A DNA stretch of 64,000 nt, from positions 1 to 64,000 of IMG/VR virus record IMGVR_UViG_3300040801_002693. The stretch is one strand, 5' to 3'. This document shows positions 23,098 to 61,900 of this stretch, piece after piece. Every line of letters starts with the position of its first letter. Positions within the stretch are counted from its first letter, which is position 1. The DNA is from a virus. A model generated the notes under the pieces. The model saw only the letters and a program-made list of their open reading frames with translations. It ran no database searches and was not told the DNA's origin. Position numbers and translations under genes: made by a program.

Positions 23098-23357
23098 AAC
23101 GAGGTTCCTGTTGAATACCGGAACCGCCACTACTGGTGCTAAGCAGAAGGCGGCGGACTGTGAAGAGTTAGCACTACCGGCAACAGGAACCGGCCCACCT
23201 TTCGATGGCCCTACACAGCCCGCCATTGAGATACGGACATAAAAAATGCGCCGTTTCGCAAATTGGACGCTATGCGCCTGTTGATTCGGGGTGCTAATCC
23301 CGACTCCCGATTTTGCGAGAGTGGGATAATTATAGCGCAACATCATTGATGTAATAA

Positions 23358-23682: not shown

Positions 23683-23710
23683 ATCATACCATTCTGGATG
23701 GTAAATGCAA
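23683..23710 (-). promoter_or_regulatory. Leftward operator-promoter TTGCAT-2-TACCATccagaATGG-TATGAT
   Basis: On the minus strand, -35 is at 23705-23710, the operator at 23687-23703, and the extended -10 TGgTATGAT ends at 23683. Sits 20 nt upstream of the SSB-like start. Confidence 0.6.
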
Positions 23711-25253: not shown

Positions 25254-25709
25254 AAGAACCGCCACGTAGTCTGTGCATAGATGCTTCTGAAAGCCGAACC
25301 GTCCGCCATGCCCTTTTTCGCACAGCTTCACCGAACCTGCTTCATCCCCCGGCATCGACATCCCGTGCGAGCAATCGGTACAGCGCACCCAGGCCGGTTC
25401 TGGGGCGACTTTTTTTTCAGGGTCATTCAGGGTCGAGATGGAAGCGATCGTGGCGTTAAACGCCTCCTGGATGCCCTGGACGTGATCTATCGTCGCTACG
25501 TTCTCGCGGAAGTACGCCAGGATCGCCGCTTTGTTTTGGGTGATCCATGCGACCTGCTTCTCGGACAACTTGGCGCGAGGACTCACCAGCAACCGATCTC
25601 CGGGCTGAATGACGACCTGAAATCCGGCGTCAATGATGCGGTCAATGGCTTTTTCGATCTGCGAGGTATCCGCTTTAGGTGTAACCTCTACCTGGTCTAG
25701 CAGGCTCAT
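25245..25709 (-). CDS. Hypothetical protein with Cys-rich C-terminus (154 aa)
   Basis: Start overlaps the primase-helicase stop by 1 nt. Confidence 0.55.
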   Translation of the reverse strand: MSLLDQVEVTPKADTSQIEKAIDRIIDAGFQVVIQPGDRLLVSPRAKLSEKQVAWITQNKAAILAYFRENVATIDHVQGIQEAFNATIASISTLNDPEKKVAPEPAWVRCTDCSHGMSMPGDEAGSVKLCEKGHGGRFGFQKHLCTDYVAVLLH

Positions 25710-27592
25710 CAGAAACCCTCTGGGTGCACGTAGATGATCGGTAATTCAGTCGGCCCTTCCAGGAATTGCTGGCTCTCTCGATGGAACCAGAGCGGGATCG
25801 TCGCCAGCCAGCCGTTGAACCGGTTCTTCTGAATCGAGAGGGTGGTGTCGGGCGCGCAGGCCAGCCGTGTATCCATCGGAGTGCCGTTGATCTTCTCGTC
25901 CTGCTGCGCCGCAAACTTTTCCTTGTTTCGCCACACCACCACCACGTTATGCGCCATATCGACCAATCCGCCCGAACCTTTCACGTCGTACATCGTCGGC
26001 GCTTTGTTCTCATCACTCGGCTTCTTGGGGTGAATGACGAGGTGAACGTGAACCTGATGCTCACGCGCAAACCCAATCAACGCCTGTGCCGCCGCCACCT
26101 GCTTGTCGTAGTCGTCGTAACTGATACCGAGCATCATCAAACTGTCCACTACAAACTGGGTGACTCCGTGCCGCTGGCGCGCATACTTGAAAACCTCCAG
26201 CACGGTTTTAATATTCGATGAACCGACATGGTGATAAATCACGCAGCGATCCTCGATAGCATCGGACAACCGATCCAGTTCTTCCGGGATGAGTGTTGAC
26301 CGGCCTGCCAACTGCTTGCACAGGCGATCAATGGTTTCGTCGGCGCTCATCTCCAGACTGGCAATACAGGCCCGCTCCTGGCCGGGTTGATGGATGGCAT
26401 AGGCCAGGATGTGAGAAAGCAGGCTAGTCTTCCCGTGCCCCCCAAAACCCGTCCAAACGGTCAGGTGATTCGGCACCATGAAAAACTCACTCGCCTTCGA
26501 CCAGGGCAACATCAATCCCTCAGGTTCCCCATTGCGCTCCGCCTGTTTCCGCATCCGCTCTTTGAGCAATTCAACGCCTTCCCGGAAGGTGATAAATTCT
26601 TCCGGGCTAAGGTAAGCCGATTGACGCAGGCAATTCAACACCTGCTCAGTCGTAATGCCCTGCATCAAACACTCGTTGATGTCCTTGTGCGGGAGCTTGA
26701 CGAGGCGGCAACGATGACGACCCAGACGCTTAATCAGACTGATCGCACCGTTCTCGCCGGGTTCATCCATGTCGAAGTTGATGAAAATCTCATCGAAGCG
26801 ACTCAGGTTGTCGCTTTCATCCTCAACCCATTCCTCCCCTCCAGCCCCGTTCGGTACGCTCAATGCCGGAACGCCGAATTGATGCCAGGTCGCACAATCA
26901 ACCTCGCCCTCCGTTAATAAAACCTTCCGGGCATCGGGTTTGATGAGGTGCCAGCCGAACAGAATGCGCTTGCAATCCGTTTCCAGGCGAATCCGCTTCT
27001 TGAGCGATCCGTTCTTCTGTTCCACACGCTGTAGCGCCAGATACTTGTTGTTGATCAGCGTCAACTTCCCGTCCGGGTTCTTGATCAGGTACGGAAAGAC
27101 GATGTCCGCCGGGTTATCAGGAAGATCATAAAAGCTGTTGGGCTGTTCCAGGATGTGAAACGCCTTGATCGTCTCGTCGGTCAGTCCTCGGCCATGCAGA
27201 TACGCCATGACCGGTGATTCCGGGGCAGGTGCCTTGCTGGCCGGAGGACGGTTCGCCGTTGCATAGGTTTTCGGCTTCTTGAGTTTCGGGGGCGGGCTGA
27301 CCCCGAGGTAGTTACGGACCTCGGTCATCGCCTCGCTGATCGACAAACCGAACCGCAGCGCCCAGGCATCCAGTAGATCACCTCGGTGCTCATCCTTGAA
27401 CGCCCAGTCGCAGAACATCCCTGCTTTCGCACCTGAGAGTTCACAGGCCAGCGAATGTCCAGCGCCGCCATGAACGTCCCCTACGCGCCATTCCTTGCCT
27501 TCGCGCTTTCCGTTGGGCCACAGGTACTCGCAAACCCCTTGCGCGTCTTGTGCGAGCAACTGGGCCAGTTCTTTCGGGGATTCGACGATCAT
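25709..27592 (-). CDS. Bifunctional primase-helicase (TOPRIM + DnaB/gp4-like helicase), 627 aa
   Basis: TOPRIM motifs LLTEGEVDCATW and INFDMDEPG. Walker A GFGGHGKTSLL, Walker B FVVDSLMML, and HVHLVIHPKK. Confidence 0.85.
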   Translation of the reverse strand: MIVESPKELAQLLAQDAQGVCEYLWPNGKREGKEWRVGDVHGGAGHSLACELSGAKAGMFCDWAFKDEHRGDLLDAWALRFGLSISEAMTEVRNYLGVSPPPKLKKPKTYATANRPPASKAPAPESPVMAYLHGRGLTDETIKAFHILEQPNSFYDLPDNPADIVFPYLIKNPDGKLTLINNKYLALQRVEQKNGSLKKRIRLETDCKRILFGWHLIKPDARKVLLTEGEVDCATWHQFGVPALSVPNGAGGEEWVEDESDNLSRFDEIFINFDMDEPGENGAISLIKRLGRHRCRLVKLPHKDINECLMQGITTEQVLNCLRQSAYLSPEEFITFREGVELLKERMRKQAERNGEPEGLMLPWSKASEFFMVPNHLTVWTGFGGHGKTSLLSHILAYAIHQPGQERACIASLEMSADETIDRLCKQLAGRSTLIPEELDRLSDAIEDRCVIYHHVGSSNIKTVLEVFKYARQRHGVTQFVVDSLMMLGISYDDYDKQVAAAQALIGFAREHQVHVHLVIHPKKPSDENKAPTMYDVKGSGGLVDMAHNVVVVWRNKEKFAAQQDEKINGTPMDTRLACAPDTTLSIQKNRFNGWLATIPLWFHRESQQFLEGPTELPIIYVHPEGF

Positions 27593-32223: not shown

Positions 32224-32468
32224 GCTATCTCCTTCAATTCAGTTACCGGGTATGCCCAATCGCCGCGCTTCTCCCAGTACTCACAACTGGCCGACGCCTG
32301 GGTAGCGCGATAATGCAAGCGACCTTTCAAGAACGCCGAATGCATCCGGCAGTGTCCCCACAATCCCGAGGGGCGCAGGTCGTGTTGATGTCCCCAAAAC
32401 CGGCAACTCTCACAGCGCGGCTCTCTGGCCCACCAGGCGTCTTCCAGAATCATCCGTTGTCCTCGCAA
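32220..32468 (-). CDS. Small Cys/Trp-rich protein (82 aa)
   Basis: Overlaps the helicase 3' end by 19 nt. CESCRFW...HCRMH...SCEYW. Confidence 0.45.
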   Translation of the reverse strand: MRGQRMILEDAWWAREPRCESCRFWGHQHDLRPSGLWGHCRMHSAFLKGRLHYRATQASASCEYWEKRGDWAYPVTELKEIA

Positions 32469-34102
32469 ATCAAGGTCGTGATCTTATTCAACTGCAAGCG
32501 ATGAATCGCCCGAGTCGCCGCCACATACAGCGCGTTAAACTCCTGTTCTGGGCCGGTCACACAACGAATCCCGTTTTCATCCTCCTCTACCTTAACCCGA
32601 AAGAAGTCATCGCCCATCAACACCTGCTCGAACTCAAACCCCTTGCTTTTGTGGACGGTACTCAGCACAACATCTGCATCCTCCATCGTCTTGGTTTCCC
32701 CGGCCTGTTCTAGAGTGCGACAAATCCTCGGCAACTCCCGATCGTAGTTCTTCACCAGCTTCACGTAACGGTTCAACTCGGCATCGGTTTCTGCTTCCTG
32801 GGTTAAGGTCTCCCAGTCCTCGTAGGGCTTAATCTCGGGGTGTTTCACCAGGGGATAGTCCTCGTCATACAGTCCCCACACACTCTTGGCGCGCTCAATC
32901 GCATCGCGGATCGAACCGACGACATGAATGCTCCGGCCTCGTGAAACCGCCTCGACCGAATTCTCGAACACGCCCGCATTGGTGCGACTGATGTGTGCGT
33001 AGGGTTGACGGGCATCAATCAACCCAACCTCGGAACGCACTCGCTCGGTGCCTCGGACGGCAGGAATATCCAGGTAATGACTGTGCAGGATTTGAGTGGC
33101 GATCCGGGCAACCACATCCCCGAAGCGATGGGATTTTGTCATGTAGCACAAACCGCCCTTCGCCCGCTTCATCGCATTCGCCGCACCCCGCCAGTCATAA
33201 AGACCCTGGCAGTGATCGCCGACAACGACGACCTGGCAGGTCTGTTGAAGCACAATATCCTCGACACAGGGATTGGTGTCCTGGTACTCATCCACCATCA
33301 GGAAGCGAATCCCCGGAATCACCGGCTTCATCAACTGCCACGCCTTGAGGTACGCATCGTGCTGCATCGGGTACGGATGCTGTTCATCCCAAATCGCCGC
33401 CCACAGGTCAGTCGCCAGACTCAGCAACCGCTGGCGATACCCCATCCAAATCGCTTGGGTCAGCTTCGGCAGTTCCCGATCCTGCCACGCCTCCAGGTCT
33501 TCGAGGGATTCATTCGGATAACGGGCGCAATGATCTTCAATCAGGCGACTCTTAAACCAGTTCTGCGGGCGCAAACTGTCATAGCAATGCTGGATCGTAA
33601 GGGCCTCATCAGCGCTGTGCATGAAGCGATTTAAGGACTGGATCGCCGCAAACGCCACATGCTGATTCGTGACCCCACAGGTGGCCGTCACTCCAAATTC
33701 CTTGATAACCTGAAAGGTCGGCCAGCGCGTGTTCAATCCACTCATTTGCTGCGGGCGCAACACCCCGGCCTCGCGCACCGCTCGGAGGGCGCAGGAATGG
33801 GTGGTTTCACACTGCGTCGTCGGGATAAACTTCTCGCGGGCTTCATCGGCGTTGCGCTTGTTGAAACACCAGAGCTTTCCGACCTGCGGTTTCAGGAAGG
33901 TCAGATACTTCAACAGCGAGGTCTTGCCCGACCCGGCGAAGGCATTGACCACCAGGTTTTCCCCGGCAACCCACCGTCGGCCAATCTCGATTTGTTCGTC
34001 CGTGGGCGCAAAGGGTGGGGCAACGGGTGTCGGCAAAGGCGAGGGAGTCAGATGAAGTTCCTGCTGCGGGAGTGGTTTTCTAAGAGCGGCTATGCGGGGC
34101 AT
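32450..34102 (-). CDS. UvrD/PcrA-family SF1 DNA helicase (550 aa)
   Basis: Walker A AFAGSGKTSLL, motif II LMVDEYQDTNP, and VHKSKGFEFEQVLM. Its RBS lies in the 3' arm of an 8-bp hairpin at 34106-34129. Confidence 0.85.
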   Translation of the reverse strand: MPRIAALRKPLPQQELHLTPSPLPTPVAPPFAPTDEQIEIGRRWVAGENLVVNAFAGSGKTSLLKYLTFLKPQVGKLWCFNKRNADEAREKFIPTTQCETTHSCALRAVREAGVLRPQQMSGLNTRWPTFQVIKEFGVTATCGVTNQHVAFAAIQSLNRFMHSADEALTIQHCYDSLRPQNWFKSRLIEDHCARYPNESLEDLEAWQDRELPKLTQAIWMGYRQRLLSLATDLWAAIWDEQHPYPMQHDAYLKAWQLMKPVIPGIRFLMVDEYQDTNPCVEDIVLQQTCQVVVVGDHCQGLYDWRGAANAMKRAKGGLCYMTKSHRFGDVVARIATQILHSHYLDIPAVRGTERVRSEVGLIDARQPYAHISRTNAGVFENSVEAVSRGRSIHVVGSIRDAIERAKSVWGLYDEDYPLVKHPEIKPYEDWETLTQEAETDAELNRYVKLVKNYDRELPRICRTLEQAGETKTMEDADVVLSTVHKSKGFEFEQVLMGDDFFRVKVEEDENGIRCVTGPEQEFNALYVAATRAIHRLQLNKITTLICEDNG

Positions 34103-37566: not shown

Positions 37567-38004
37567 ATGAATAAAGATAAATTTATGGCTTGTTTAGATG
37601 ATGAAGCAACTGACAAGCAGATTGAGGAACTCAATACTTTTATAATAAAAAGAGTCGAACAACGTCCTATCTCTAATGAAACTTTAGAGTATATTGAAAT
37701 AATTTTAAATAAATTGTATCCAAAAGGTATTTGTACCTACAGAAATCTTAGCAATAAATGGAGATATAAAGATACGCAGTTATGGTGTGATATTGCAGAA
37801 CAAGCTGCGGCATTTATATCAAATGATAGTATCCGTATTGAAATACAAGGAGGTTATCCGTCAGATATTTTAATTGATGACTATAGAGAAGGTAGAATTT
37901 ACATTGCTGGAATTGATTATAATCATCGACCAGAATTAACAATTATTAGAATCGACGATGCGATTGAAAGAATGATAAGTGACGAAAGATTTTGGTATAG
38001 ATAA
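37567..38004 (+). CDS. Hypothetical protein encoded by an A+T-rich moron (145 aa)
   Basis: Clearly lower G+C than all neighbours. AAGGA SD. Bracketed by terminators on both sides. Confidence 0.6.
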   Translation: MNKDKFMACLDDEATDKQIEELNTFIIKRVEQRPISNETLEYIEIILNKLYPKGICTYRNLSNKWRYKDTQLWCDIAEQAAAFISNDSIRIEIQGGYPSDILIDDYREGRIYIAGIDYNHRPELTIIRIDDAIERMISDERFWYR

Positions 38005-38011
38005 CCTGCAT

Positions 38012-38043
38012 AAAAAACCCTCCTGGGACAACCCACAGGAGGG
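38012..38043 (-). terminator. Rho-independent terminator (minus strand) CCCUCCUG-10nt-CAGGAGGG-U6
   Basis: 8-bp perfect stem; the plus-strand A6 run at 38012-38017 supplies the U-tract. Ends the 39156-to-38068 operon. Confidence 0.75.
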
Positions 38044-38067
38044 AACCTACCACCGCAGAGCTACCCA

Positions 38068-38238
38068 CTACAGAAAATGGAACCGCTCAGCCTCGACGTA
38101 CTTCCTACCGAAATCCCGCAACGCCTTCGTCACCGCCAGGATCGTTTCCCGATCCAGGTAGTTTTTCTCAACACGTTCCATCATATCCACCAGGAGCGCC
38201 TGTACCGCCTCGCGCTCTTTCTGTGTCGCGTTACCCAT
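38068..38238 (-). CDS. Hypothetical small protein (56 aa)
   Basis: Below the ORF-track cutoff. Its ATG shares one base with the upstream TAA (TAATG). Confidence 0.4.
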   Translation of the reverse strand: MGNATQKEREAVQALLVDMMERVEKNYLDRETILAVTKALRDFGRKYVEAERFHFL

Positions 38239-38468
38239 TATGCCCCCGGAAGCAACGTCGCCCGCACCGCTGCATCCTTCGCTTCGAGCAGTTTGCGCAG
38301 CGCCACCGTCCGTTCAGGGCCAGGGTCTAGGTGATCGCACAGATAAAGCGCGATATCGTGAAACAGGATGGAGGTGGCTTGCAGATGCTCCGGGAGATGC
38401 GTGTAGGCAAACCACTTGAGCATACGTTCGCCTTCTTGCAGAGGTCGGATACTCTCGTCTTTCATCAT
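38238..38468 (-). CDS. Small helical protein with F-x-Y-x-H...ALRKLLEAKDAAVRA pattern (76 aa)
   Basis: ATGA overlap with the upstream gene. The pattern FAYTHLPEHLQ...PGPERTVALRKLLEAKDAAVRA is recalled from a very widespread small phage family. I believe, unverified, that this family includes the cyclic-nucleotide sponge Acb2/Vs.4. Confidence 0.5.
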   Translation of the reverse strand: MMKDESIRPLQEGERMLKWFAYTHLPEHLQATSILFHDIALYLCDHLDPGPERTVALRKLLEAKDAAVRATLLPGA

Positions 38469-38707
38469 TCCGCCCTGATCGTCTCAATCCACGCCAGGAA
38501 CTCCCCGGCATCCGTGTAGATGTCATCCACCTTATTCTTATGCATCGCCATCGCCAGCTTCTTAAAGTGGCCGGGTTCGATGCCGCAGGACTCCTTAATA
38601 GAAGCCACGATCGCGGCCTGATGGTCTTTCTCCCCGTCCGTCCGCACCAGGGAGTTCACGTATTCGCCGAGCGCATTTTTCAGCGTCGTCAGGTCATTGG
38701 AAGGCAA
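38465..38707 (-). CDS. Hypothetical protein (80 aa)
   Basis: Co-oriented; overlaps the upstream ORF. Confidence 0.5.
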   Translation of the reverse strand: MPSNDLTTLKNALGEYVNSLVRTDGEKDHQAAIVASIKESCGIEPGHFKKLAMAMHKNKVDDIYTDAGEFLAWIETIRAE

Positions 38708-38957
38708 TTAAAAGTTCTCCGGTTTGAATGAGGAAATCAATATCTTCTTCGAGGGCTTCGACGGTCACTTTGCCGTCGTACACACCCATGTTGACGAACC
38801 CTTTCCACTTCTCGCGCAACTGTTCGTCGGGCATATCCACAGAGGCGCACCGCACCGTCGCGCTAAAGGCTTGTGGGGTCGGGCGCAGTAACACCTGAAC
38901 CGGGCCGGACTTGCCGATCGCCCGTTTTACCTTGCGCGAGAGTTCATACGGCCCCAC
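38694..38957 (-). CDS. Hypothetical protein (87 aa)
   Basis: Start set to the GTG at 38957 behind a GGAAGG SD; the ORF-track start lies inside the upstream gene. Confidence 0.4.
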   Translation of the reverse strand: MGPYELSRKVKRAIGKSGPVQVLLRPTPQAFSATVRCASVDMPDEQLREKWKGFVNMGVYDGKVTVEALEEDIDFLIQTGELLIAFQ

Positions 38958-39156
38958 GTTGCGCCTTCCATTCTTCGTACTCCGCAACCACCGCCTCGGC
39001 GTTCGGAAGTTCTTCAAACAGCAGGCCCAGGGCGCAAAACAGTCCAGCGATCTCCGAAGTATCCAGTTGTCCCTGCAAAACCTGCATAACCTCCATCACT
39101 TTGTCACGACTAGAACCCGGCAAAAACTCAATGAAATCGTCACCTTCGTAAAACAT
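38944..39156 (-). CDS. Hypothetical acidic protein (70 aa)
   Basis: Start trimmed to the ATG at 39156 (GGAG SD), immediately downstream of the leader terminator. Confidence 0.45.
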   Translation of the reverse strand: MFYEGDDFIEFLPGSSRDKVMEVMQVLQGQLDTSEIAGLFCALGLLFEELPNAEAVVAEYEEWKAQRGAV

Positions 39157-39166
39157 AGGCACTCCA

Positions 39167-39193
39167 TAAAAAAGACGGGCCTTGCGACCCGTC
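39167..39193 (-). terminator. Promoter-proximal intrinsic terminator GACGGGUC-GCAA-GGCCCGUC-U6
   Basis: 8-bp stem (one G-U pair) with a GNRA loop and a U6 run. Begins about 20 nt after the predicted start site of the 39221-39249 promoter and ends 10 nt before the operon RBS. Confidence 0.7.
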
Positions 39194-39220
39194 AATGTTC
39201 CACCACAACAAGGAAAGCGC

Positions 39221-39249
39221 AATCTACCATGCTCAATAGTTGCTTGCAA
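39221..39249 (-). promoter_or_regulatory. Leftward operator-promoter TTGCAA-2-AACTATtgagcATGG-TAGATT
   Basis: On the minus strand: -35 at 39244-39249, operator at 39225-39241, -10 at 39221-39226 with a TGn extension. Confidence 0.6.
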
Positions 39250-39259
39250 GATTTTTCTT

Positions 39260-39272
39260 CTATTCTGAATAG
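39260..39272. promoter_or_regulatory. Palindrome CTATTC-t-GAATAG between divergent promoters
   Basis: Perfect 6-bp arms; candidate binding site for the adjacent XRE protein. Confidence 0.45.
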
Positions 39273-39357
39273 TGATCAGGTAAAATACATTTAAAGCGAT
39301 AAAAATGTAGGCCAAATCGCTTTTTTGGACACCTTCTTACCCGCATTAGGTATTGCC

Positions 39358-39729
39358 ATGCACAAGGAAAATCAACACATTGTTGTGATTGATCCTAATA
39401 ATTCACGAGACTTTTTCATTAAGTTACGTGAAAAGTCTGGCCTAACGCAATCGCAGGCGGCGCGAGAATCCAAAATTGCGCAACAAACCATTTCTTTAAT
39501 GGAGAAGCAAGGGATTCGTTTGCGCACTAACTGGGAAGTGGCGGGACGTTTATTAAAAACCTATGCAAAACATGGCGCTCCATCCTGTTTTGCGCTGATT
39601 TTTAATAACGGAACCTTGCTTACGGAGGAAGCGATTCCGAGTCTTTACACACACGAGCAAACGCTTGAATTGACGAAGGATAAACTCAGAGACCAATTGG
39701 CGGAACTGTTAAAGAATCTGGACGGTTAG
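39358..39729 (+). CDS. XRE-family HTH transcriptional regulator (123 aa)
   Basis: LREKSGLTQSQAARESKIAQQTISLMEKQG is a classic Cro/C1-type HTH. An alternative TTG start lies at 39325. Confidence 0.65.
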   Translation: MHKENQHIVVIDPNNSRDFFIKLREKSGLTQSQAARESKIAQQTISLMEKQGIRLRTNWEVAGRLLKTYAKHGAPSCFALIFNNGTLLTEEAIPSLYTHEQTLELTKDKLRDQLAELLKNLDG

Positions 39730-39783
39730 CCAGGAATCTCGTCGCTCTAAACCCTTGACCCGCAGGAATGCGGGTTTTTTCTG

Positions 39784-39812
39784 TTGATTCCTACCATACA
39801 AAATGGTATCAT
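39784..39812 (+). promoter_or_regulatory. Rightward operator-promoter TTGATT-2-TACCATacaaaATGG-TATCAT
   Basis: Perfectly palindromic operator at 39792-39808. -10 at 39807-39812 with a TGn extension. Confidence 0.6.
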
Positions 39813-39993
39813 GGGTTTCGTTTTTAGGAGAGACCCTTTGAAAAAACCAATGGCGACTCGACTGAAGTCAGATGAACCGCATTTACCGCATTGGCCGATT
39901 CCTTCTGCACTTCCTGAAAGGGTAGATCGGCTGAATTGGACGGGAGCAATCGCAGTGATTGCATTAATGGTAGTCATTTCAATGGTGTGGTGA

Positions 39994-40341
39994 ATGAATC
40001 TATCTGAATTGTTTTCACCAAAAAAACTCATTCGTTCGTTTGCTTGCTGCGCCGCCGATCGGGAAATGAGTCTCGATGAGATTCAGATGCTAGAGATCGC
40101 GCAAGAGCAACACGCCGACCAACTTCTCAGCGACCCGGTTGAGTATGCCGGGATGCTAGAGAACCTGGATGACCCGATGATTGTTGAGCGGGTGGCGAGC
40201 GCGATGCATCGGCTGTTCAACGCGACGGCATTGGAAGAACACGATGCGGTCATGCAGTGGCGGCGGGCCTGGGCCTCGGTCGCCGATGCGCAAGCGATCG
40301 AACAACTCAACGAACAATGGGAGAGCGACTTTGGACGATGA
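39994..40341 (+). CDS. Hypothetical protein (115 aa)
   Basis: First sizeable ORF of the rightward recombination operon. Confidence 0.5.
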   Translation: MNLSELFSPKKLIRSFACCAADREMSLDEIQMLEIAQEQHADQLLSDPVEYAGMLENLDDPMIVERVASAMHRLFNATALEEHDAVMQWRRAWASVADAQAIEQLNEQWESDFGR

Positions 40342-40738
40342 ATTTGATGTTGAAGAAATCTTCCGGCAGGCCAATGAGCGGCATAAAGCCGTGGCTTGTT
40401 CAGAGTGCGGCAACGAACACGATCACGTCATGGCTGACCCGAATCACTTGCTGGAGTGTTATGAATCCTTAAATGAGTACTACCCGTTCAAGGCGGGCAC
40501 TTTGGCAACCTGGAAGCCCTTTATGAAGGATGCGCGTCTGCCGGTGGAAGGGGAAGCCTGTGTCGTGTTGGAGGTGTTTGATCCGCCCATCAAGAACACG
40601 ATCACTGACCCCCGTACCCGGCACATCGTTAGTTTTCAGCAGGTCTCACTGGTGATTGGGGTGATCGACGATGACGGGGATTTTTGGCAGTACGCCGTGG
40701 ATGGGCGGCGCTTCATGCCCTGGCGGGGTAATGCCTAA
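40331..40738 (+). CDS. Hypothetical protein (135 aa), TTG start
   Basis: No ATG in frame. TTG at 40331 lies 5 nt after GGGAGAG, the same context as the dnaN TTG start. Contains CSECGNEHDH. Confidence 0.45.
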   Translation: MDDEFDVEEIFRQANERHKAVACSECGNEHDHVMADPNHLLECYESLNEYYPFKAGTLATWKPFMKDARLPVEGEACVVLEVFDPPIKNTITDPRTRHIVSFQQVSLVIGVIDDDGDFWQYAVDGRRFMPWRGNA

Positions 40739-41547
40739 TGAACATGCTTACCGAGATGAGTACGCTGGAGTATTTCGCGCTGCCGTATCTGAATCAGAGC
40801 GGACTGAAAACCCTCCGGGAAAGCCCGTTCTTGTTCAAGCATCCTCGGATTCGGGAATCCACACCCGCGCAACAGTTTGGGACGTGGTTTCACACGCTGC
40901 TGATGGAGAATGAATTGTTCTGGGAGACGTATATCCCGGAACCGGTCTTTCAGCACGACGGGCGCTCACTGCCTGGAAAAACGGAGCGCCGCCTGTTTCG
41001 GGAAGCGTCGGAAGGGAAGGGCGTCATCAGTAACGGGGATTACCAATTACTGAATCGGATGCGGGAAGCTGCATTGGCTGATCCGGTCGCCCGTCAGTTG
41101 TTCGCCGCAGGTAAGGCCGAGCAAACCCTGATCTGGGAGGATGAGACCGGGATTCTGTGCAAGGCTCGGATTGACTGGTTGCCGGATGCGGTGGAACACA
41201 TGATTGTCGATGTGAAAACCGCCAGCAGTGCCAACCCGAGCGAACTGCAACGCAGCGTTATCAAGTGGGGTTATCACATTCAGGATGCGTGGTATCGCCG
41301 AGGCTATGCCCACGTATTCGGACGGGAACCCGATTTCATCTTCTCTTTTCATGAGAAACCCAAACACCCGGAGGATGAACCGATCCCGCCGGTATTGATT
41401 GAACTGGATCGCAACTTCCGGGCGGCAGGACAGCGCGAAGTGGCGCGTCTGCTGACGCTCTATCAGGAGTGCGTGAACAACAACGAATGGCCGTCGTACA
41501 CGCAGGGGATCACTCTGCTGTCACCTCCACCTTGGTTTAAGGAATGA
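40738..41547 (+). CDS. PD-(D/E)XK exonuclease, RecE/YqaJ-like (269 aa)
   Basis: GTWFHTLL...CKARIDWLPD...MIVDVKTASS...IQDAWY provides the D...(D/E)xK core plus a Q-x-x-x-Y motif. ATGA-type junction with the upstream gene. Confidence 0.75.
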   Translation: MNMLTEMSTLEYFALPYLNQSGLKTLRESPFLFKHPRIRESTPAQQFGTWFHTLLMENELFWETYIPEPVFQHDGRSLPGKTERRLFREASEGKGVISNGDYQLLNRMREAALADPVARQLFAAGKAEQTLIWEDETGILCKARIDWLPDAVEHMIVDVKTASSANPSELQRSVIKWGYHIQDAWYRRGYAHVFGREPDFIFSFHEKPKHPEDEPIPPVLIELDRNFRAAGQREVARLLTLYQECVNNNEWPSYTQGITLLSPPPWFKE

Positions 41548-41729
41548 AATGAACGATGGTAGCCCCTACAACAACAAGGCTAGTCGCACAAGCGACTGCT
41601 CCCGATCAATCGGGTTGACGCTTCTCAGGGTGCCTTTGTAAGCGCTTCCCTCCACGTCCGAGTCACCCTCGCACCGAGGGCCGATTTAATACTAAACCTA
41701 GTTTAGTGTTATTGTCAACAGGATTACAA

Positions 41730-42611
41730 ATGAACGAATTAGTCAGCAACCCGTTTGGCGAATCCCAGGCTGTTTCTACCGTAGAAACCAGTGCCGGGGC
41801 GGCAGATCAGTCTCGCGCCATGAGTGAAGTTCAGGCATCGCTGGTGATTGCCAAGCGCTTCCCGCGTGATCAGATGGCCTGCATGGATCGTATCCTCCAA
41901 GCCTGTACCCGCTCCACCCTGGCCGATGAGGCTGCGTATGCCTTCCCTCGGGGTGGGCAAATGGTGTCGGGGCCGTCGATTCGGCTGGCGGAAACGATGG
42001 CGCAGTTGTGGGGAAATATGGATTACGGCATCAAGGAGATGTCGCGCGCCACCAAAGACGGCATCACCAGTTCCGAGGTTCGGGCGGTGGCGTGGGATTT
42101 GGAAACCAACACCCGGCGCTACATTGATTTCACCGTCAAGCATTGGCGGGACACCAAGAGCGGCGGGTACGCCCTAAAGGACGAGCGGGACGCCTACGAA
42201 CTGATCGCTAACCAGGGATCACGCCGGTTACGCGCCTGCCTGTTGGGGATTATTCCTCGGGATGTAACGGAGGCCGCAATGAAGCAGTGTGAGACCACCC
42301 AAATGAATAAGGGGGGTGCGCCTCAAGACCAGATTAAGAAGTTGGTGGAAGCCTTTGCTTCGTTTGGAATCGAGTCCGATCACATCGTCAAGCGCCTCAA
42401 GCATCGGCTGGATAGCGTGAACCAGGCGGAAATCCTGCAACTGAAAAAGATTTACGCCTCGCTGCGTGATGGGATGGCGAAGCCCTCGGATTTCTTTGAG
42501 GTTGCTCATGATGAGGCCGGAAAGAAGGAATCCGCGCTCAATGAGAAGCTGAAAAAGCCTGCTGCTAATGACGCGCCTGCGCCGGTCGCAGAAACCCCGA
42601 AATCCGCCTAA
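41730..42611 (+). CDS. Single-strand annealing protein, RecT/Redbeta-superfamily-like (293 aa)
   Basis: Lies immediately downstream of the exonuclease. The C-terminal-core motif GSRRLRACLLGIIPRDV resembles the RxxxRxxxxxxP motif of RecT/Bet. Assigned mainly by context. Confidence 0.5.
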   Translation: MNELVSNPFGESQAVSTVETSAGAADQSRAMSEVQASLVIAKRFPRDQMACMDRILQACTRSTLADEAAYAFPRGGQMVSGPSIRLAETMAQLWGNMDYGIKEMSRATKDGITSSEVRAVAWDLETNTRRYIDFTVKHWRDTKSGGYALKDERDAYELIANQGSRRLRACLLGIIPRDVTEAAMKQCETTQMNKGGAPQDQIKKLVEAFASFGIESDHIVKRLKHRLDSVNQAEILQLKKIYASLRDGMAKPSDFFEVAHDEAGKKESALNEKLKKPAANDAPAPVAETPKSA

Positions 42612-44333: not shown

Positions 44334-45335
44334 ATGAGAAAATTAGCGACGATAGAAGTCATTAAGACGGTAACGGCGCACCCTAATGCCGACAGTCTTG
44401 ATCTGGCGACGGTGCGGGGATGGCAGGTGGTTGTAAAGCGTGGGGAGTTCAAGGAAGGCGATCATTGCGTGTACTGCGAGATCGACTCCGTACTTCCTGA
44501 ACGTGAGGAATTCGAGTTCCTGCGTAAGAACAAGTTTCGGATCAAGACGATCCGCCTGAGAAATGAATTAAGCCAGGGGATCGCGTTTCCAATCAGTATT
44601 CTGGAGCGCGTTCCGGGTGCAGAGTATTTGGCGCTTTCAACGGGCGATGATATTACCGAGGTCTTGGGAGTGACACTCTATGCGCCGCCGATCCCTGTTG
44701 ATTTAGCCGGTGATGTGGAGGGTAAATTCCCGGCCTTTATCCAGAAAACGGATGAGGAGCGGATTCAGAATTGCGCTTTTGTGCTGGAGAAGTACAACGA
44801 TTTGGAGTGGGTAGCAACGGAGAAGGTTGATGGAAGCAGTGTAACTTTTTTCATCAAAGATGGGAAATTTGGCGCGTGTTCTCGCAACTGGGAAATGAAA
44901 GATACGCCGGGAAACCTGCATTGGAGGATAGCGCATCAACTGAATTTGCCGGAAAAGATGCGTGAAGTAGGTCGGGACTTTGCGCTTCAAGGCGAACTGC
45001 TTGGCCCCAAGATTCAGGGTAATCCTTACAAGCTCCCGGAGCATCAGGTGCGCTTCTTTAGTCTCTACTGGGTGGATCAACAGCACTACGGAAACCATCA
45101 CCAATTGAAGGAGATGTGCGCTTATTTAGGACTGAAAATTGTTCCGGTCATTCATTATGGCGACATTCTACCACGCACCTTGGAAGAAGCCTTACGCACT
45201 GCCGAGGGGTTGAGTGATATGGGGGATACGGAGCGTGAAGGGTTGGTGTATCGCCCTTTACAGGAACGTGCTGACCCGGCGCTTGGACGACTGAGCTTCA
45301 AGGCGATTTCCAACCGGTTTTTGCTGCAAAAATGA
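44334..45335 (+). CDS. ATP-dependent RNA ligase, DRB0094/Rnl5-like family (333 aa)
   Basis: N-terminus MRKLATIEVI...HPNADSLDLATVRGWQVVVKRGEFKEGDHCVYCEIDSVLP. Nucleotidyl-transferase lysine in TEKVDGSS. Matches the recalled family signature. Confidence 0.75.
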   Translation: MRKLATIEVIKTVTAHPNADSLDLATVRGWQVVVKRGEFKEGDHCVYCEIDSVLPEREEFEFLRKNKFRIKTIRLRNELSQGIAFPISILERVPGAEYLALSTGDDITEVLGVTLYAPPIPVDLAGDVEGKFPAFIQKTDEERIQNCAFVLEKYNDLEWVATEKVDGSSVTFFIKDGKFGACSRNWEMKDTPGNLHWRIAHQLNLPEKMREVGRDFALQGELLGPKIQGNPYKLPEHQVRFFSLYWVDQQHYGNHHQLKEMCAYLGLKIVPVIHYGDILPRTLEEALRTAEGLSDMGDTEREGLVYRPLQERADPALGRLSFKAISNRFLLQK

Positions 45336-55928: not shown

Positions 55929-55952
55929 AAAGCCCCTTCTCAGGGGCTTTTT
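55929..55952. terminator. Terminator AGCCCCT-tctc-AGGGGCT-TTTT at a convergent junction
   Basis: 7-bp stem with a T-run on the plus strand and an A-run upstream. Lies between the 55924 (+) and 55951 (-) gene ends. Confidence 0.7.
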
Positions 55953-58900
55953 AGTACCGCTTTTCCTCCAGCATGACCTGCATTCCGCGACTGGGAATGA
56001 ACATGCCATCTATCGACTTGGCATGAGCGCGTCTCCGGTTCATCATGGCATTCCGAATCCGCTCCTGCGTGATCGCAATCCGGGGATTTGTGCGGTTGAA
56101 CTGGGCAATTTTCTGACGCGCCAATCGCGCCATCTCGGTGTCCTGAGACTCGTTTGCAAAAACCACGGCCCGAATGAGCGCCTGCGCCCGCCGATCGAGT
56201 TGACCCTTGTAGTTGTAAAGCAGGTTATTTTGTTGATAAACATTCGCAATTTCCGCTGGTGAGAAGCCCATCGCTTGCATCACCAGTTGCCGCCCATTGA
56301 CCTCGTTGATCAACTTATCCCCACGCCGAGTCATCACGCCCTCGGTCTCGTAACGCCACGCCTTGACCATATTCGCCAGCGGGGAGGGTAAAGCCGACTC
56401 AAAGCCGCGATAGGTTAAGTCGGTGCTGCCTTCGCTCAGCCCGCGATTCATGTCGTGCATTCCCTGCGCAACCTTCGCACCCATCCCGAACACCGGGCCT
56501 GCGAACTGCCGCAGATACTCCATCGCCAATTGCTGACCCTCTAAATCACCGGGCGGCTTCCGAATCCACAGGCGAATCAAATCCAAACTCAACCGTGATT
56601 GCAGCGACATCGGCTCACCGGCACCAAACACCGTACCGGCAGGGCCGTGCATCACCATCTCCCGGCCTTGTTCGCCCAAGGTATCGGTCAGTTCCTTATT
56701 CAGCCACAACTCGAAATCCCAGGGATCGTCGTCATCGCCGAACAGGGCCTCGGCCATCGCCACTGCACCGACGACAATCGTGTACATCGGCAGACCCATC
56801 GCCCCGCCGAGGATCGCGGTATTCATCATCATCCAGCCGAGGCGCTTCCGAGCTACAGCCCTTTCTTCGGGAGCGACCCCTTTGCGGAACGGCATCGACT
56901 GATAGATGTCCCGCGTTAAGCGCCAGGTCATCAACTGCGAGTAGGTGCGGAACAGGAACGCCACCCGCGCCCAGTCCGAACGCATGAAGCGCGCCCGATT
57001 GGCGTTGGAGTATTCGCCCTGGGTGAACGCAATCGCCTTAAACGCATAATCCATCGCCTTCTGATGGGCCTCTTCACGAGGCAGGTTGTTCAGTCTTTGT
57101 CGCATCAGTCGGTAGGCCGCCAATCCAGTGACCTCACGATTCGAGACCTCGGAGTGGTGGAACAGGAACCCGCCGACACGGGTGGCGAAGTCGGCAAAGC
57201 GACTGGCCTTACCGCCCATCCCCGGCTGCATCAGCATCGCATCCTCACCCAGTCCCGCCAACTGCGTCGTTGCCGAGCGTGAGACGCGCCCCGAGGTCTC
57301 CAGGAAGTTCAGGAACCGACCCATGTCGCCTTCAAATTCCCCACCCAGGGTCTCCATCATCGCCGCCTCCAGCGGGGTGATGGCGCGATCAATTTCGTAC
57401 CCCTCCTGCTTCATCTGCTTGACGGCTTTCAGGTATTCCGTCTCGTCCTTGTAGGTCATATACCGCACGTCATCTTGCGCCTGACCGTTCTCATCCAGGA
57501 CTTGCCGGGTGGCCTTAAACGCCATCAGATTCGGCGAAACCCCCATCTGTCGCCGCCGATTAATGACGCGGGTATAATCACCCATCGCCTTATGTACCTG
57601 CTTAAAGGCTTTCCCGCCGCCGAATCGCGCTGCCAATTCCGGGAAGGTCATTAGCGGCACTTGTGAGATGTTGACCAGGGCGGTGGAGGGGTTGGTGAGA
57701 TACCAGAGGAACCCGAGCGAGGTCGCCCGATTCGCCCAGGTGGAGTTGGAGGGGTTCATTAGCCAATCATAGCTTTTCCAGAGTTCCTGGACGATCTTAC
57801 CGGCCTTGGATTGGTTCTCTAAATCCCCATCCAGTGACCGTACTTCCCGCTCCATCTGGTACATCAAATCGGTAATGATGTCTCCGTAGTGTAAACGAGC
57901 CAGCATGTTCGCCGATCCGTTCATAAACTGTCCATAGGCCCTCAAAGCGTCCTGATTGAAGCCAGTCACGGATTTACGCTGTAACCGATGCTTGCGTATC
58001 GACAAGTCCGGCAGCGCCTCCAGATAGAGGTTGTAGATTTCCTGTTTGAGGTTTTCCTTCTCCCGAGGATTCTGAACCGTCTCATCCACGAACTGATAAA
58101 GGTCACTCACAAACGTCCCGCTCGGTGCCTTCTCGACCTCATCCTTAATGGCCTTATAATCCGTATTGACTGTCCACCCTTCCTTCTCCAGCGCATCCTT
58201 GGCTTGCCGCTGCTCCTGGATGGTCTCGAAACGCGAGAAAGCAATTTTCTTCTCCATCACCGGCAGGCCAGCTTCATCGAATTTCTTTTCCCCGGTCGCC
58301 CGATCCATCGCCTGCTGCATTCGATGGGCATACACGTAATACTGTCCATAGCGGGTCAGTGGCGCGTAAGGAACGATGCGAGCGCCCGCCTCGGCGTAGA
58401 GTTCAATCGACTCCATGAGCGTCGTTTGGCGTAACTTGTAACTGCGATTAATGTCCTTAAACAGCATCCGAGCATCTTCGGGTAGCGTTGCCAACTCCTG
58501 CTGCATCGCTTCGTGCTCTTCGGGAACAAACGACTTCTGTGAAACCCGATCCACCAGGATGTTGATGGCGCGGCGCTGTGTACTGATCAACAAGTTCTTG
58601 AGCTTCCCAAAGGTATCCTCATCCCGACTTTCCAATTCAGCCAGACGCGCATCCTGCGGCATGTTCTCCAACTTCTTGCGCAAGTGGAATAGCTTTTTCT
58701 GGTCTTTACTGAGGGCCTGATACGCCTTCTTGGCGCGAACCACTACCGAACTGACTTCCTGCTCAAAAGGCGTCAGTGGTGCATTAATACTGGTCAGGCG
58801 GCGATGCCGTTCCTTCGTGATCACATCCTCTTCGTGCATCTTCTTTTCGAGCTTCAACACCTGCTCAATCACCAGACGCTCTTTTCGAGGCGCATCATTC

Positions 58901-61900
58901 AACTTCTCCAGCAGTTCCCGGACTTCCTGTACCTTGGCGTCCTCGGGGTCACGACGGGCAGCGCGATCCAAGGTGGTTTTCACCATTGACAGCCCGGAGC
59001 GTCCCACTCGCTCCTTCATGGCGGCGTACTTCATATCGTTGATCTTTTCGTAATTATCGAAGACCTGTTGAATCGCGTCGGCCAGGATCGGATTATTCTT
59101 TTTGAGCGTGTCGTACTTCTTGGTCAGGATGTCGTACCACCGCTCGTATTCGCCATACAGTTCGTCCGTAATCATCGGCCCTCGCTCTTCACGAGTCTGC
59201 TTGGGCTTACTGACATCGACGTGATAAATGGTGGAGCCGTGCAGAATGTAATCCATCAACCGCGCTGAGTTGGGGTCGCGGCCTACCTCTCGCTGCCAGA
59301 GTGGCACCAACCCGTCGTACATGTCGCGCTTAACGCGGCTCTTGTCACCGTCCATTAGTGAGGCGATGTCTTCGTATTCCGAGGCGGAGGGTAGTAAGGC
59401 GGATCGTCCCTGGGCGTCAATCTGGTTCTCCTTTACCGATTCCCGTCCGGGTCGCGTGATCAGGCGTGATGCCATCTCGACCAGTTGTTGCCGAGTCAGG
59501 AACGCCAACCCGCCGCCGAAGCTGTTACGTCCGGCATCCCAAAGCCGCTGGAGGAGCGTCCGGTTGTCGGGGTTCTGATCGAAGATTTTGGTGCCGATGT
59601 CATCGAAGGTCTGCGTGTCTTGCGCGATCGGACTGGAGCGAGAGAAGGCGATACGGGCCGTATCATCATAAGTACCTCGATTATAATAACTCTTTATATC
59701 CTTATTATCAAACACCACAAAGATATTATCAAGCGGCCCACCGTCATAGGTATTTAAAATTACCAACCCATCATTATTCTCAGTTTTAGCCTTTTTGAGT
59801 AGGTCATTATAAGTTATCTCTCTATATTCATTATTATGCTGGTCATAAACCATCGGGTTACTCATCCGAATATAAGACGGATAAACTGTTGGGTTTATTT
59901 TATTATTAACGATGGAAACGCTCCCAAACTCACCTTCTTCAAGTTTCTTTAAGAAATTATATGCGCTTTTATATCCTTTATTATCATTTAGCGCATCTTG
60001 AAAATTTCCAAACCTAAACAAAGACATAATAGCATCAATTCTTGATTCTGATGTAAAAATATCAGATTCACCAAAATCACTATTTTCATTAAAAACTTCT
60101 CCACCAATAGTGATTGTCGATTCCAACTCAATATCACCAGTGTAATACTGAGAATTAGCTGTGCTTGCGCTTCCTGCAAAGAAAAATCCCTTTCTTGCTG
60201 ATGCGGCTTTAGTATTCTCACCTAACTTTCCGCTATCAAACTCTTCAATTTCTCCTGATTTTGACCCATGATAGACTTTAGCAACAAAAGGCTTTCCTGT
60301 CTCAAATGGCTTTGCTGTCTCAATACTTATGTTGTCCTTATTTTCTTTAAGCCAAGAATATTCAGGCCAATTTGTCATTTCTTCGTCTTCATAATAAGCA
60401 AGCGTTTCATCTACATCCTTAATTCTGAAAAGTTCACTTATCATATTATCGAAACTAGCAGGGCCGGGTATAGATTTACCATATTTAGCCTTTAAAAAGC
60501 GCCTTAATGGCCCGGAAGGATCGCCTAATTTAATCTTCTCATTAAAAATTACTACTGAATCTCCATCTTCATTTTCTAGCGATGCCGGGTCTACATACTG
60601 GAAAACAGGATACCCTCGTGACCACCGCTGAAACTCAGACGTAGATTCTTGCGCAAAGCTCGGATAGGCGATCTTGCTGCCTGAGATCACCCAGGAGGAT
60701 TCGCTTGGCGAACCGCTGTCCAGCATCCGCTGTGACTCCCGCGCAAAGCGATAGACGCTGTTCAGGGTCAGGTCTTGAGTAAAGGCGTTATCCATTCCGA
60801 GTTTTTTCAGGAAGGCACGTAGGGCTTGCAGGATACGATCACCGAGACTCTTGAGTAGCTTGACCTGCTCGAACTGTCCGTTCTCCAGCAATACCGCAAA
60901 GATTTCCTCGCTGCGTTGGAATTTATCCAACTTCGGTTGCCGACCATCGACCTGTTCAGTCGCCGCTTTCACCGCCTTATTGCCGACCTGTTCCAGTCGA
61001 TGCAGGGCATTCATCAGATGCATGAACTCAGGCGCTTCCCGTAGATTATGGGTTGCCCAATGCGCAATCGTTTCGTGCATCAGAACTTCGCGGGCGCGTT
61101 TCAGGTCTGGGAGTTGATCGGCGATCAGATAGACGCGCCGGGAGACCCCATCGTAAAAGCCTTCAACGGTTTCGGTACCTGCGCCTAAGCGATCCACCAG
61201 TTCTTTCGGAAGGTCGCTGATGGAGTTGACGACTCGGACATTCAGCCCCGCATGACGCCACAGGGCTTCTTTTGGGGTGACCAGGGACTCGGTGATTTGG
61301 GTGGGAGAAACAGAAACCCCGACTTGCGCCGGGGTCTCAGGGTTCGTGCGGGAGAATCTTAATCCGGGAGGCGTTCGACTAATCGATCCATCAAAGGATC
61401 GAGCGAGGCGGAAATCTCCTTGCTCGATATACTGTTCCGCCAGTCGTCGTACTCCTCGTCCCCGCCGATCATCGCCTCGAACATCTCGGGCGGCAGTGAG
61501 AGCGGACTGGATGGCGTCTGCGGAGATGCCGCGCTGTTCGGCGATTCGGGCAAACTCGGCAGAGAAGTCGGTTGGGGTGCTTTTATCATCCCTTACTCCA
61601 AGAATTGAATAAAGTTCCTTTTCAGGATACCACATAATCGCCTGCAAGTCAGCCGGGGTGACGCCCATCTTATCTGCAACTTCCGTAAAGAGGCGAGTCA
61701 TCCAGTAACGACGAGTCGCCGTTTTTGGATCGTCTTTCGGATTAAATGCCGCCTTAACCTGACGCGCTGCTTTTCCGGCTGAGTCAAAAGGCTCTCCGAC
61801 AGGGAAGGCGTTTTTCTTGCCTCTCCCTTTATTGTCATACTTTCCGAACACGGTTCCAGCCAAACTCAGCATTTCGTCGTTGTCATATTGATAGAAATTC

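Follow-up and report, generated by a model that had tools for sequence, protein, structure and literature searches.

A leftward operon with a leader terminator beside a candidate repressor gene in an uncultured phage, and its inserted gene with a remote relation to Acb2

What five small overlapping genes might do behind a promoter-proximal terminator is the question raised by positions 38068-39272 of the DNA analyzed here, a stretch of 64,000 nt (the window) that corresponds to positions 1-64,000 of the virus record IMGVR_UViG_3300040801_002693 and originates from a microbial mat sample, from which three metatranscriptomes are also available. A preliminary description of the locus had proposed that the whole operon, which diverges from a gene for an XRE-family helix-turn-helix (HTH) protein, resembles anti-CRISPR (Acr)/anti-CRISPR-associated (Aca) loci and may be an anti-defence cassette, and had tentatively linked the 76-aa product of its fourth gene, here g4, to the sponge family Acb2/Vs.4. 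Among the main counter-defence strategies of phages are sponges, proteins that sequester the second messengers of bacterial immunity. Our analyses suggest, with confidence slightly better than even, that the region is the leftward early operon of a phage immunity region, controlled by a repressor and an attenuator, in which g4 is an inserted relative of the sponges. New here are the operator regulon that provides the immunity-region context, the recognition of g4 as mobile cargo, and a very large unannotated family related to Acb2. The result is a regulatory map of an uncultured phage in which a palindromic operator occurs at ~14 promoters, a candidate repressor gene is flanked by copies of it, and an early operon is gated by a leader terminator.

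Operon layout and related loci

The operon comprises the following features, given in window coordinates.

38944-39156, minus strand: g1, 70 aa, with a GGAG Shine-Dalgarno sequence at 39165-39162 and an ATG start at 39156
38694-38957, minus strand: g2, 87 aa, with a GTG start at 38957
38465-38707, minus strand: g3, 80 aa, with a TTG start at 38707
38238-38468, minus strand: g4, 76 aa, with an ATGA overlap with g3
38068-38238, minus strand: g5, 56 aa, with a TAATG overlap with g4
38012-38043, minus strand: closing terminator, a 26-nt hairpin (38043-38018) followed by U6 (38017-38012), -17.2 kcal/mol, fold z-score -3.1

The five open reading frames (ORFs) of 56-87 aa reported earlier were recovered with the same sizes in the JGI and Logan gene calls, made independently on contigs identical to the window, and the second terminator does close the unit. 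The ATGA and TAATG junctions said to join the genes hold for g3/g4 and g4/g5 but not for g1/g2 and g2/g3, which each overlap by 14 nt; at these two junctions, the ATGs in the nearby ATGA strings open dead-end frames, and the GTG start of g2 and the TTG start of g3 are backed by the N-termini of homologues in two related loci, L004 and L005. Because they overlap, the five genes may be translationally coupled.

The related loci, which were found only via large protein collections, include L004 and L005, which extend upstream of the operon, the partial loci L006 and L009, and L007, which covers the g2 region only. In L004 and L005, an XRE gene diverges from the gene order g1'-g2'-g3'-g5', and in L006 and L009 g3' is directly followed by g5'. 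In each of the four metagenomic relatives that span the g3-g5 junction, g3' and g5' overlap by 4 nt and g4 is absent. Because g4 is absent from all four, it is an insertion between g3 and g5 in the window lineage, made in such a way that overlapping junctions were preserved. By the same comparison, the conserved core of the operon consists of g1, g2, the DsbA-like g3, and g5. Beyond its XRE gene, L005 also has RecT and YqaJ recombination genes, and the operons of the relatives contain extra small genes that had no PHROG matches and therefore give no support for an anti-defence island. Searches for further relatives found none of g1, g2, and g3 in IMG/VR, none of g2 and g3 in JGI metagenomes, and none of g3 in GTDB genomes.

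Among 5.8 billion proteins, g1 matched only itself; it had no Pfam, PHROG, or NCBIfam match, and its positional homologues in L004 and L005 are weak (27-29% identity). The g2 family amounts to six proteins in 1.84 billion representatives, with the g2 of L004 being 48% identical to that of the window; the AlphaFold2 (AF2) model of g2 is a small alpha/beta protein (predicted local distance difference test (pLDDT) score, 89), for which comparison with the PDB returned no significant fold, the best match being to superoxide dismutase C-terminal domains at E 0.1. The g3 proteins of the relatives are 56-61% identical to window g3, which matches phrog_639 ("transcriptional regulator," E 4.4e-8) and scores 16.4 bits (E 0.011) against PF11126, below the cut-off of 25; a PF11126 match is precomputed for 8/8 g3 homologues. 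g3 is probably distantly related to T4 DsbA, which binds double-stranded DNA and regulates late transcription. The small protein g5 follows directly after g3 in every relative. None of g1, g2, g3, and g5 resembles a known inhibitor in Pfam, PHROG, NCBIfam, fold, and profile comparisons.

Operator, candidate repressor gene, and leader terminator

The control region upstream of g1 and the XRE unit beyond it contain the following features.

39221-39249, minus strand: operon promoter, with -35 TTGCAA (39249-39244), a 17-nt spacer, an extended -10 TG, and -10 TAGATT (39226-39221)
39224-39242: operator O1, minus-strand sequence CAACTATTGAGCATGGTAG, one copy of the palindrome CTACCAT-N5-ATGGTAG
39168-39193, minus strand: leader intrinsic terminator, with an 8-bp stem GACGGGUC/GGCCCGUC and a GNRA loop GCAA (39193-39174), then U6 (39173-39168)
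39257-39275: degenerate operator copy O2, 33 bp from O1, which forms with it the direct repeat D1 and is 78% identical to the O1 copy
39358-39729, plus strand: XRE-family HTH gene, 123 aa, with HTH_31 and HTH_3 matches and an alternative TTG start at 39325
39757-39782, plus strand: terminator of the XRE unit, called by the terminator scan; RNA contigs end at 39736-39757
39784-39812, plus strand: rightward early promoter TTGATT-17-TATCAT, with operator CTACCATACAAAATGGTAT at 39791-39809
8192, 9346, 12892, 23686, 25225, 29904, 35199, 35239, 39224, 39791, 49370, 49645, 53466, and 54021: 19-bp operator copies with <=3 mismatches
9346, 23686 (minus strand), 35239, 39224 (minus strand, operon), 39791, 53466, and 54021: operator sites that share one layout

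The operon promoter, earlier described as good, lies where the preliminary description had placed it and is overlapped by an operator, O1, which covers part of the spacer and extends over the initial 3 nt of the -10 element; the promoter matches only 8/12 consensus positions and for that reason was not called by the consensus scan. In the alignment of the intergenic regions, the position and form of the promoter are kept in L004 (TTGCTT ... TAAGAT) and L005 (TTGAGT-17-TAAATT), and the operator is found at the equivalent promoter in both (L004 505-523, L005 3783-3801), where the motif is retained despite divergence of the remaining intergenic region; further copies occur elsewhere in L005, L006, and L007. 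These operator and promoter comparisons, and not consensus strength, indicate that the promoter is real.

In the window, the degenerate pattern YWACYA-N7-TRGTAR has 9 matches at 5 sites versus 0.06 expected, and the 19-bp CTACCAT-N5-ATGGTAG, with <=3 mismatches allowed, occurs at 16 sites versus 1.3 expected. The ~14 promoters at which this presumed operator was found include the one on the far side of the XRE gene. Seven of the sites have the same layout, in which the -35 element is followed by 1 nt and then by the operator (19 bp), so that the operator's final three bases also open the -10 element, and two copies are located 40 bp apart upstream of a ParB-like gene. Together, the dispersed copies appear to define the early regulon of the phage. 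The palindrome CTATTC-t-GAATAG, previously singled out as the element between the operon and the HTH gene, does exist (39260-39272, inside O2) but is not significant alone, because ~15 such palindromes are expected per 64 kb; D1, the repeat behind O2, is a two-copy family and likewise weak evidence by itself. O2 may serve to autoregulate the XRE promoter.

The HTH gene is divergent from the operon, as had been described, and constitutes a separate transcription unit with its own terminator. Homologues with 40-44% identity occupy the same position in L004 and L005, and the recognition-helix region is similar in all three proteins, which fits an operator common to the three loci. The XRE gene sits between two outward-facing promoters, each overlapped by an operator (39224-39242 and 39791-39809), of which the rightward one lies directly 3' of the XRE terminator and heads an operon with an exonuclease VIII-like gene (phrog_412, E 9e-73). 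Because the presumed operator recurs at so many promoters, including one beyond the XRE gene, the XRE protein looks like a global repressor of the CI/C1 type and not like an Aca protein, and it would be the protein that binds the 19-bp operator.

The intrinsic terminator just after the operon promoter was borne out: it was called by the terminator scan, RNAfold assigns its hairpin -14.3 kcal/mol in isolation and gives the 55-nt leader a centroid structure at -15.5 kcal/mol, and it begins ~21 nt past the predicted transcription start. It is closer to g1 than the 10 nt before the ribosome-binding site given earlier, the U-tract ending 2 nt before GGAG and 11 nt before the g1 ATG. The number of terminator-like sites in the region is unremarkable (5 versus 2.8 +/- 1.6 expected), but the leader hairpin is one of ~8 compact canonical terminators in the whole window, and it is the only one of these that stands between an operator-promoter and the first gene of that promoter. 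At the same place, L004 carries CGGCGGUUA-GCGA-UAGCCGCCG followed by C-U5, 17 nt before the first start codon, with a stem whose sequence is entirely different from that of the window, a loop that is again GNRA, and a conserved trailing U-run plus AUGG. The L005 leader has a weak hairpin, separated from the U-run. Judged from these sequences, the leader terminator is recurrent, not universal, among the three lineages.

Searches for elements that could relieve termination were negative. No Rfam match was obtained at E <= 1 across 37900-41800; no riboswitch, Q-type element, or alternative antiterminator hairpin was found in the leader, whose ~21 nt upstream of the hairpin are too short for an alternative antiterminator structure; no conserved boxA-, boxB-, nut-, or put-like sequence is common to the leaders of the three loci; and no antiterminator family was matched among the neighboring genes scanned. 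Three candidate elements were discarded: a promoter inside the hairpin (TTGACG-18-TTTTAT, 39195-39166), whose -10 element lacks the conserved A at its second position and which is not retained in L004; a stretch of the leader, GCGCUUUCC, that could be read as boxA-like but is not retained in L004 or L005; and a C4-like RNA acting on the leader in trans, for which the duplex energy is at the 39th percentile of background. Most simply, the leader terminator can be read as an attenuator, which would limit or postpone the expression of the five genes; regulated antitermination may also operate, although the searches above gave nothing in its favor.

A C4 antisense RNA (RF01695, 67 bits versus a gathering score of 45) is present at 23146-23230 on the minus strand, this RNA type being that of the P1/P7 immI or P4 CI immunity RNA. 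An operator-promoter, TTGCAT ... TATGAT, with its operator at 23686-23704, lies ~450 nt upstream on the same strand, and shortly downstream an ORF at 22636-~23100 encodes an HNH/endonuclease VII-like product (phrog_2340, E 9e-42) rather than an icd/ant pair.

The leader hairpin could also be viewed mainly as an element of the 5'-untranslated region (5'-UTR) that protects the mRNA from 5'-end-dependent decay or controls translation, in the latter variant through pairing of the hairpin-flanking sequences, which would hide the g1 start codon. All three leaders have a hairpin shortly before the ribosome-binding site and only two have an adjacent U-run, and the minimum free energy fold of the window leader pairs GUGGAACAU with the start-codon-containing AUGUUUUAC around the hairpin, both of which favor such a role. 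On the other hand, the extended fold reaches a z-score of only -2.3, a stabilizing hairpin requires no U-tract, and two independent lineages show the classic mark of a terminator, a perfect GC-rich stem of 8-9 bp directly followed by U5-6, so we regard this role as quite improbable.

In the attenuator reading, the operon promoter would be shut as long as the repressor is present. Upon firing of the promoter, polymerase would meet the intrinsic terminator ~21-47 nt downstream, most transcripts would stop as an RNA of ~47 nt, and the five genes would be carried by read-through only. The ancestral content of the operon would have been g1, g2, the DsbA-like g3, and g5, probably with a role in regulation or host takeover, and g4 would have been added in the window lineage. 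The product of g4 would most likely oligomerize and sequester a nucleotide-derived immune signal of the type used by the cyclic-oligonucleotide-based antiphage signaling system (CBASS) or Thoeris.

Several points speak against this account of the control region. Judging by the weak L005 hairpin, the module can do without a strong leader terminator, and strong attenuation would be an odd way to express a sponge that is needed in stoichiometric amounts. Binding of the operator by the XRE protein is itself something that we infer, and the RNA evidence consists of low-depth assembled contigs, in which missing coverage does not show silence. These contigs, which are identical to parts of the window, cover 39428-39757 (the XRE gene) in 3/3 metatranscriptomes; only the XRE gene and 41119-41666 are covered in all three, with few other patches across the 64 kb, and no RNA contig from any of the three lies over the operon, the terminase gene, or the replication genes. 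This pattern fits, as weak evidence, a mostly silent genome in which the repressor is expressed, and the phage is probably temperate.

The contigs at 41119-41666 run from the 3'-terminal part of the exonuclease VIII-like gene through ~115 nt of intergenic sequence, and all of them stop at 41659-41666, where no terminator is predicted; they may reflect a small RNA or a stable RNA derived from a 3'-UTR. RNA signal peaks over 1-170, where an X6 metatranscriptome contig reaches a word depth of 30, the maximum for the window, and an X5 metatranscriptome contig covers 149-311. The first gene after the rightward promoter (39811-39993, plus strand) encodes ~60 aa with a hydrophobic C-terminal segment, GAIAVIALMVVISMVW, and its product is probably a small membrane protein.

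The arrangement can be compared with known control regions. In lambda, cI is flanked by OL/PL and OR/PR, and the PL operon carries accessory and counter-defence genes such as ral and gam. The locus described here shares with it a repressor gene between two outward early promoters that have one palindromic operator in common, a leftward operon of small accessory genes, and terminators early in the transcription units, but the operator is not confined to the immunity region, the XRE protein is without a recognizable S24 autocleavage domain, and the terminator precedes the first gene, with no N/nut-type element found. Switches based on a promoter-proximal terminator include lambda PR'-tR'/6S RNA with Q, and the leader-termination immunity of P4 and N15. 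As in these, an intrinsic terminator here follows the promoter by tens of nt, so that a short RNA would be the default and the genes would need read-through; in contrast to these, no Q-binding element, nut/put site, or antisense-RNA target was found, and the operon is early and accessory, not late. P1 C1 binds 22 operators dispersed over the genome, and the c4 antisense RNA controls Ant (PMC8546580). Many dispersed operators over early promoters and a C4-family RNA in the same genome are also features of the present phage, whereas its operator is a symmetric 19-bp palindrome and that of P1 an asymmetric 17-mer, its XRE protein is small with no detected relation to C1, and its DNA has no similarity to that of P1.

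The acr-aca operons, to which the locus had been likened, have in common with it an HTH gene that adjoins small genes of counter-defence type and a palindrome in the promoter region. Here, however, the HTH gene is divergent and monocistronic instead of standing last in the operon, the operator serves promoters across the genome, and no Acr homologue was detected. The proposal that the whole five-gene unit is an Acr/Aca-type cassette, with the XRE protein acting locally via CTATTC-t-GAATAG and a dedicated antitermination in infection, draws on the fact that all five products are small and four of them unannotated, that one is Acb2-like, and that the strong leader terminator recurs in L004. Yet the XRE gene and the operon are transcribed separately, the palindrome proposed is at chance level and is not the one that forms the conserved operator, no antiterminator element or gene was found, the four core products are without a link to known inhibitors, and g4 is the gene that the relatives lack while the others persist. 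We consider this proposal quite unlikely, and the likeness to Acr/Aca loci did not survive the analysis; the label of anti-defence fits at most the inserted g4.

Relation of g4 to Acb2/Tad1

The g4 family comprises >7,900 protein clusters at E <= 0.001 in a search limited to 8,000 candidates, and none of the best 120 of these matches has a Pfam domain or an informative name. Homologues are found in 317 deposited phage genomes, all with <60% identity (44-59% among the best 30 of the 317), and the hosts of these phages include Vibrio, Erwinia, Acinetobacter, Gordonia, Mycobacterium, and Microcystis. In 40 sampled family sequences, the C-terminal helix GPERTVALRKLLEAKDAAVRA is nearly invariant. 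g4 itself matches no Pfam family at E <= 1, and the family has no Pfam or NCBIfam model and matches function-unknown PHROGs only; the annotated contexts of two family members were uninformative.

A relationship to Acb2 emerged from profile-profile comparison. The Acb2 reference set consisted of 28 sequences, i.e. 27 homologues from Table S2 of bioRxiv 10.1101/2025.08.24.671296 and T4 Vs.4. With hhalign, the g4 family profile aligned to this set with 93.6% probability (E 2.1e-7, 62 columns) and the single g4 sequence with 75%, and three unrelated operon families taken as controls gave 0.4%, 1.5%, and 1.2%; g5, the control at 1.5%, is not Acb2-like. In addition, phrog_1454 is matched weakly by both g4 and T4 Vs.4. 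The AF2 model of g4 (pLDDT 87) has helices at 13-20, 27-46, and 51-72, that is, a short helix and then two long antiparallel ones. Below the members of the g4 family itself, a Foldseek search of BFVD yielded chiefly "Acb2/Tad1 hairpin domain-containing" proteins, 11 of the 25 top matches being named "Acb2/Tad1 hairpin domain" with probabilities of 0.41-0.98 and weak E-values of 0.3-2.7.

The pocket residues provide a further comparison. In PaMx33 Acb2, Y11, L14, and P90 are reported to hold the base (bioRxiv 10.1101/2025.08.24.671296), and the pocket uses Y11 and K26 for cyclic dinucleotides and R67 and T74 for cA3 (PMC10312549). In an alignment made by eye, g4 Y22-x-x-L25 and R69-A-x-x-x-P74 keep the spacing of Y11/L14/P90, and across the 40 family members the position of Y22 is Y or F in all, with L25 and P74 invariant; the alignment is ambiguous for the counterparts of R67 and T74. 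Overall, we conclude that g4 belongs to a sister family of PF24729, the Acb2/Tad1 hairpin, with a homology that is real but remote and falls short of family membership. The suggested kinship of the 76-aa product with Acb2/Vs.4 thus stands as a distant one.

Among the features that g4 shares with Acb2/T4 Vs.4 (PF24729; 7UQ2, 8H39) are a length within the 65-95 aa of these small phage proteins, a predicted short N-terminal helix followed by two long antiparallel helices, an aromatic residue plus Leu at the N-terminal pocket position, a C-terminal RA-x3-P motif, and the status of accessory cargo, present in some relatives and absent in others. It differs from them in that the ALTKLEEAxMWA motif is replaced by ALRKLLEAKDAAVRA.

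A number of results count against g4 being a sponge of the known kind. Whereas PF24729 matched 28/28 Acb2 homologues in the positive control (best E 2e-26), it matched 0/40 of the sampled g4-family members even at E <= 1. Searches of the solved structures in the PDB with the single g4 sequence and with the family profile gave no match, and Foldseek of the g4 model against the PDB, a method that is weak on small helical monomers, gave none at E <= 0.001, with no Acb2 entry among the 46 listed. In the g4 family, a conserved Ser occupies the column that aligns with K26, the phosphate-binding residue. When the g4 family was aligned with the classical PaMx33/T4 clade alone, the probability was 0.9%, and its profile was not significant against T4 Vs.4 alone; because the signal is lost against this clade, the link between g4 and Acb2 runs through the FxYHxP...ALTKLEEAxMWA clades, several members of which have been reported to inhibit CBASS or type I Thoeris (bioRxiv 10.1101/2025.08.24.671296, Table S2). 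Finally, the g4 family is far more conserved than the known sponge families, which are described as highly divergent (bioRxiv 10.1101/2025.08.24.671296), and may have a different target.

It is therefore worth weighing whether g4 shares with Acb2 an ancient helical-hairpin fold only and has another role, such as binding a conserved host or phage macromolecule, with no part in counter-defence. The near-invariance of the C-terminal helix and the 45-58% identity to proteins from phages of Actinobacteria, Cyanobacteria, and Proteobacteria, as against the divergence of sponge families, are in line with such a role, as are the missing PF24729 match, the lack of conservation of the K26 equivalent, and the absence of the family motif, by text search, from the part of the published table of 4,204 Acb2 homologues that was searched. 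However, the profile-profile probability of 93.6% holds across the entire domain and the controls are clean, the spacing of the aromatic, Leu, and Pro residues of the pocket is kept, and Acb2 homologues that have switched ligand to 3' cyclic ADP-ribose (3'cADPR) are already known (bioRxiv 10.1101/2025.08.24.671296). On balance, a shared fold without counter-defence seems to us rather unlikely, and sponge function is our best guess for g4, held at about even or a little better. A more specific version, in which the g4 family is an unrecognized sister family of Acb2/Tad1 with its own ligand or target, released after infection or induction by the combined switch of repressor and leader terminator, is more speculative and, taken as a whole, unlikely.

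In published surveys, a protein counts as Acb2 if HHpred matches it to 7UQ2 or 8H39, and the g4 family escapes the Pfam model, yet it is very large and unusually conserved. If its members bind a signal, they would add a widespread clade of sponges, possibly with a new specificity; if they bind none, the family would show the limits of fold-based sponge calling.

The phage and other features of the window

The phage, with a contig of ~114 kb, is novel: near-identity DNA searches with the region and 25 kb around it gave no match in phage and plasmid collections. The best matches of its terminase are ~40% identical and come from aquatic phages. Other genes in the window identified by Pfam are as follows.

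2991-4400, minus strand: N6/N4 DNA methylase
25709-27592, minus strand: Toprim-DnaB primase-helicase fusion
32450-34102, minus strand: UvrD-like helicase
44334-45335, plus strand: RNA ligase with a PHA02142 OB domain

Next to the operon, the segment 37001-38004 has a low GC content (38% versus ~51% for the window) and contains an ORF of 145 aa (37567-38004, plus strand) that converges on the operon terminator and has no Pfam, PHROG, or NCBIfam match; the segment looks like recently acquired cargo. At the far end of the window, an ORF of 2,667 aa (55951-63954, minus strand) could encode a polyvalent protein or a giant protein of the virion or tail.

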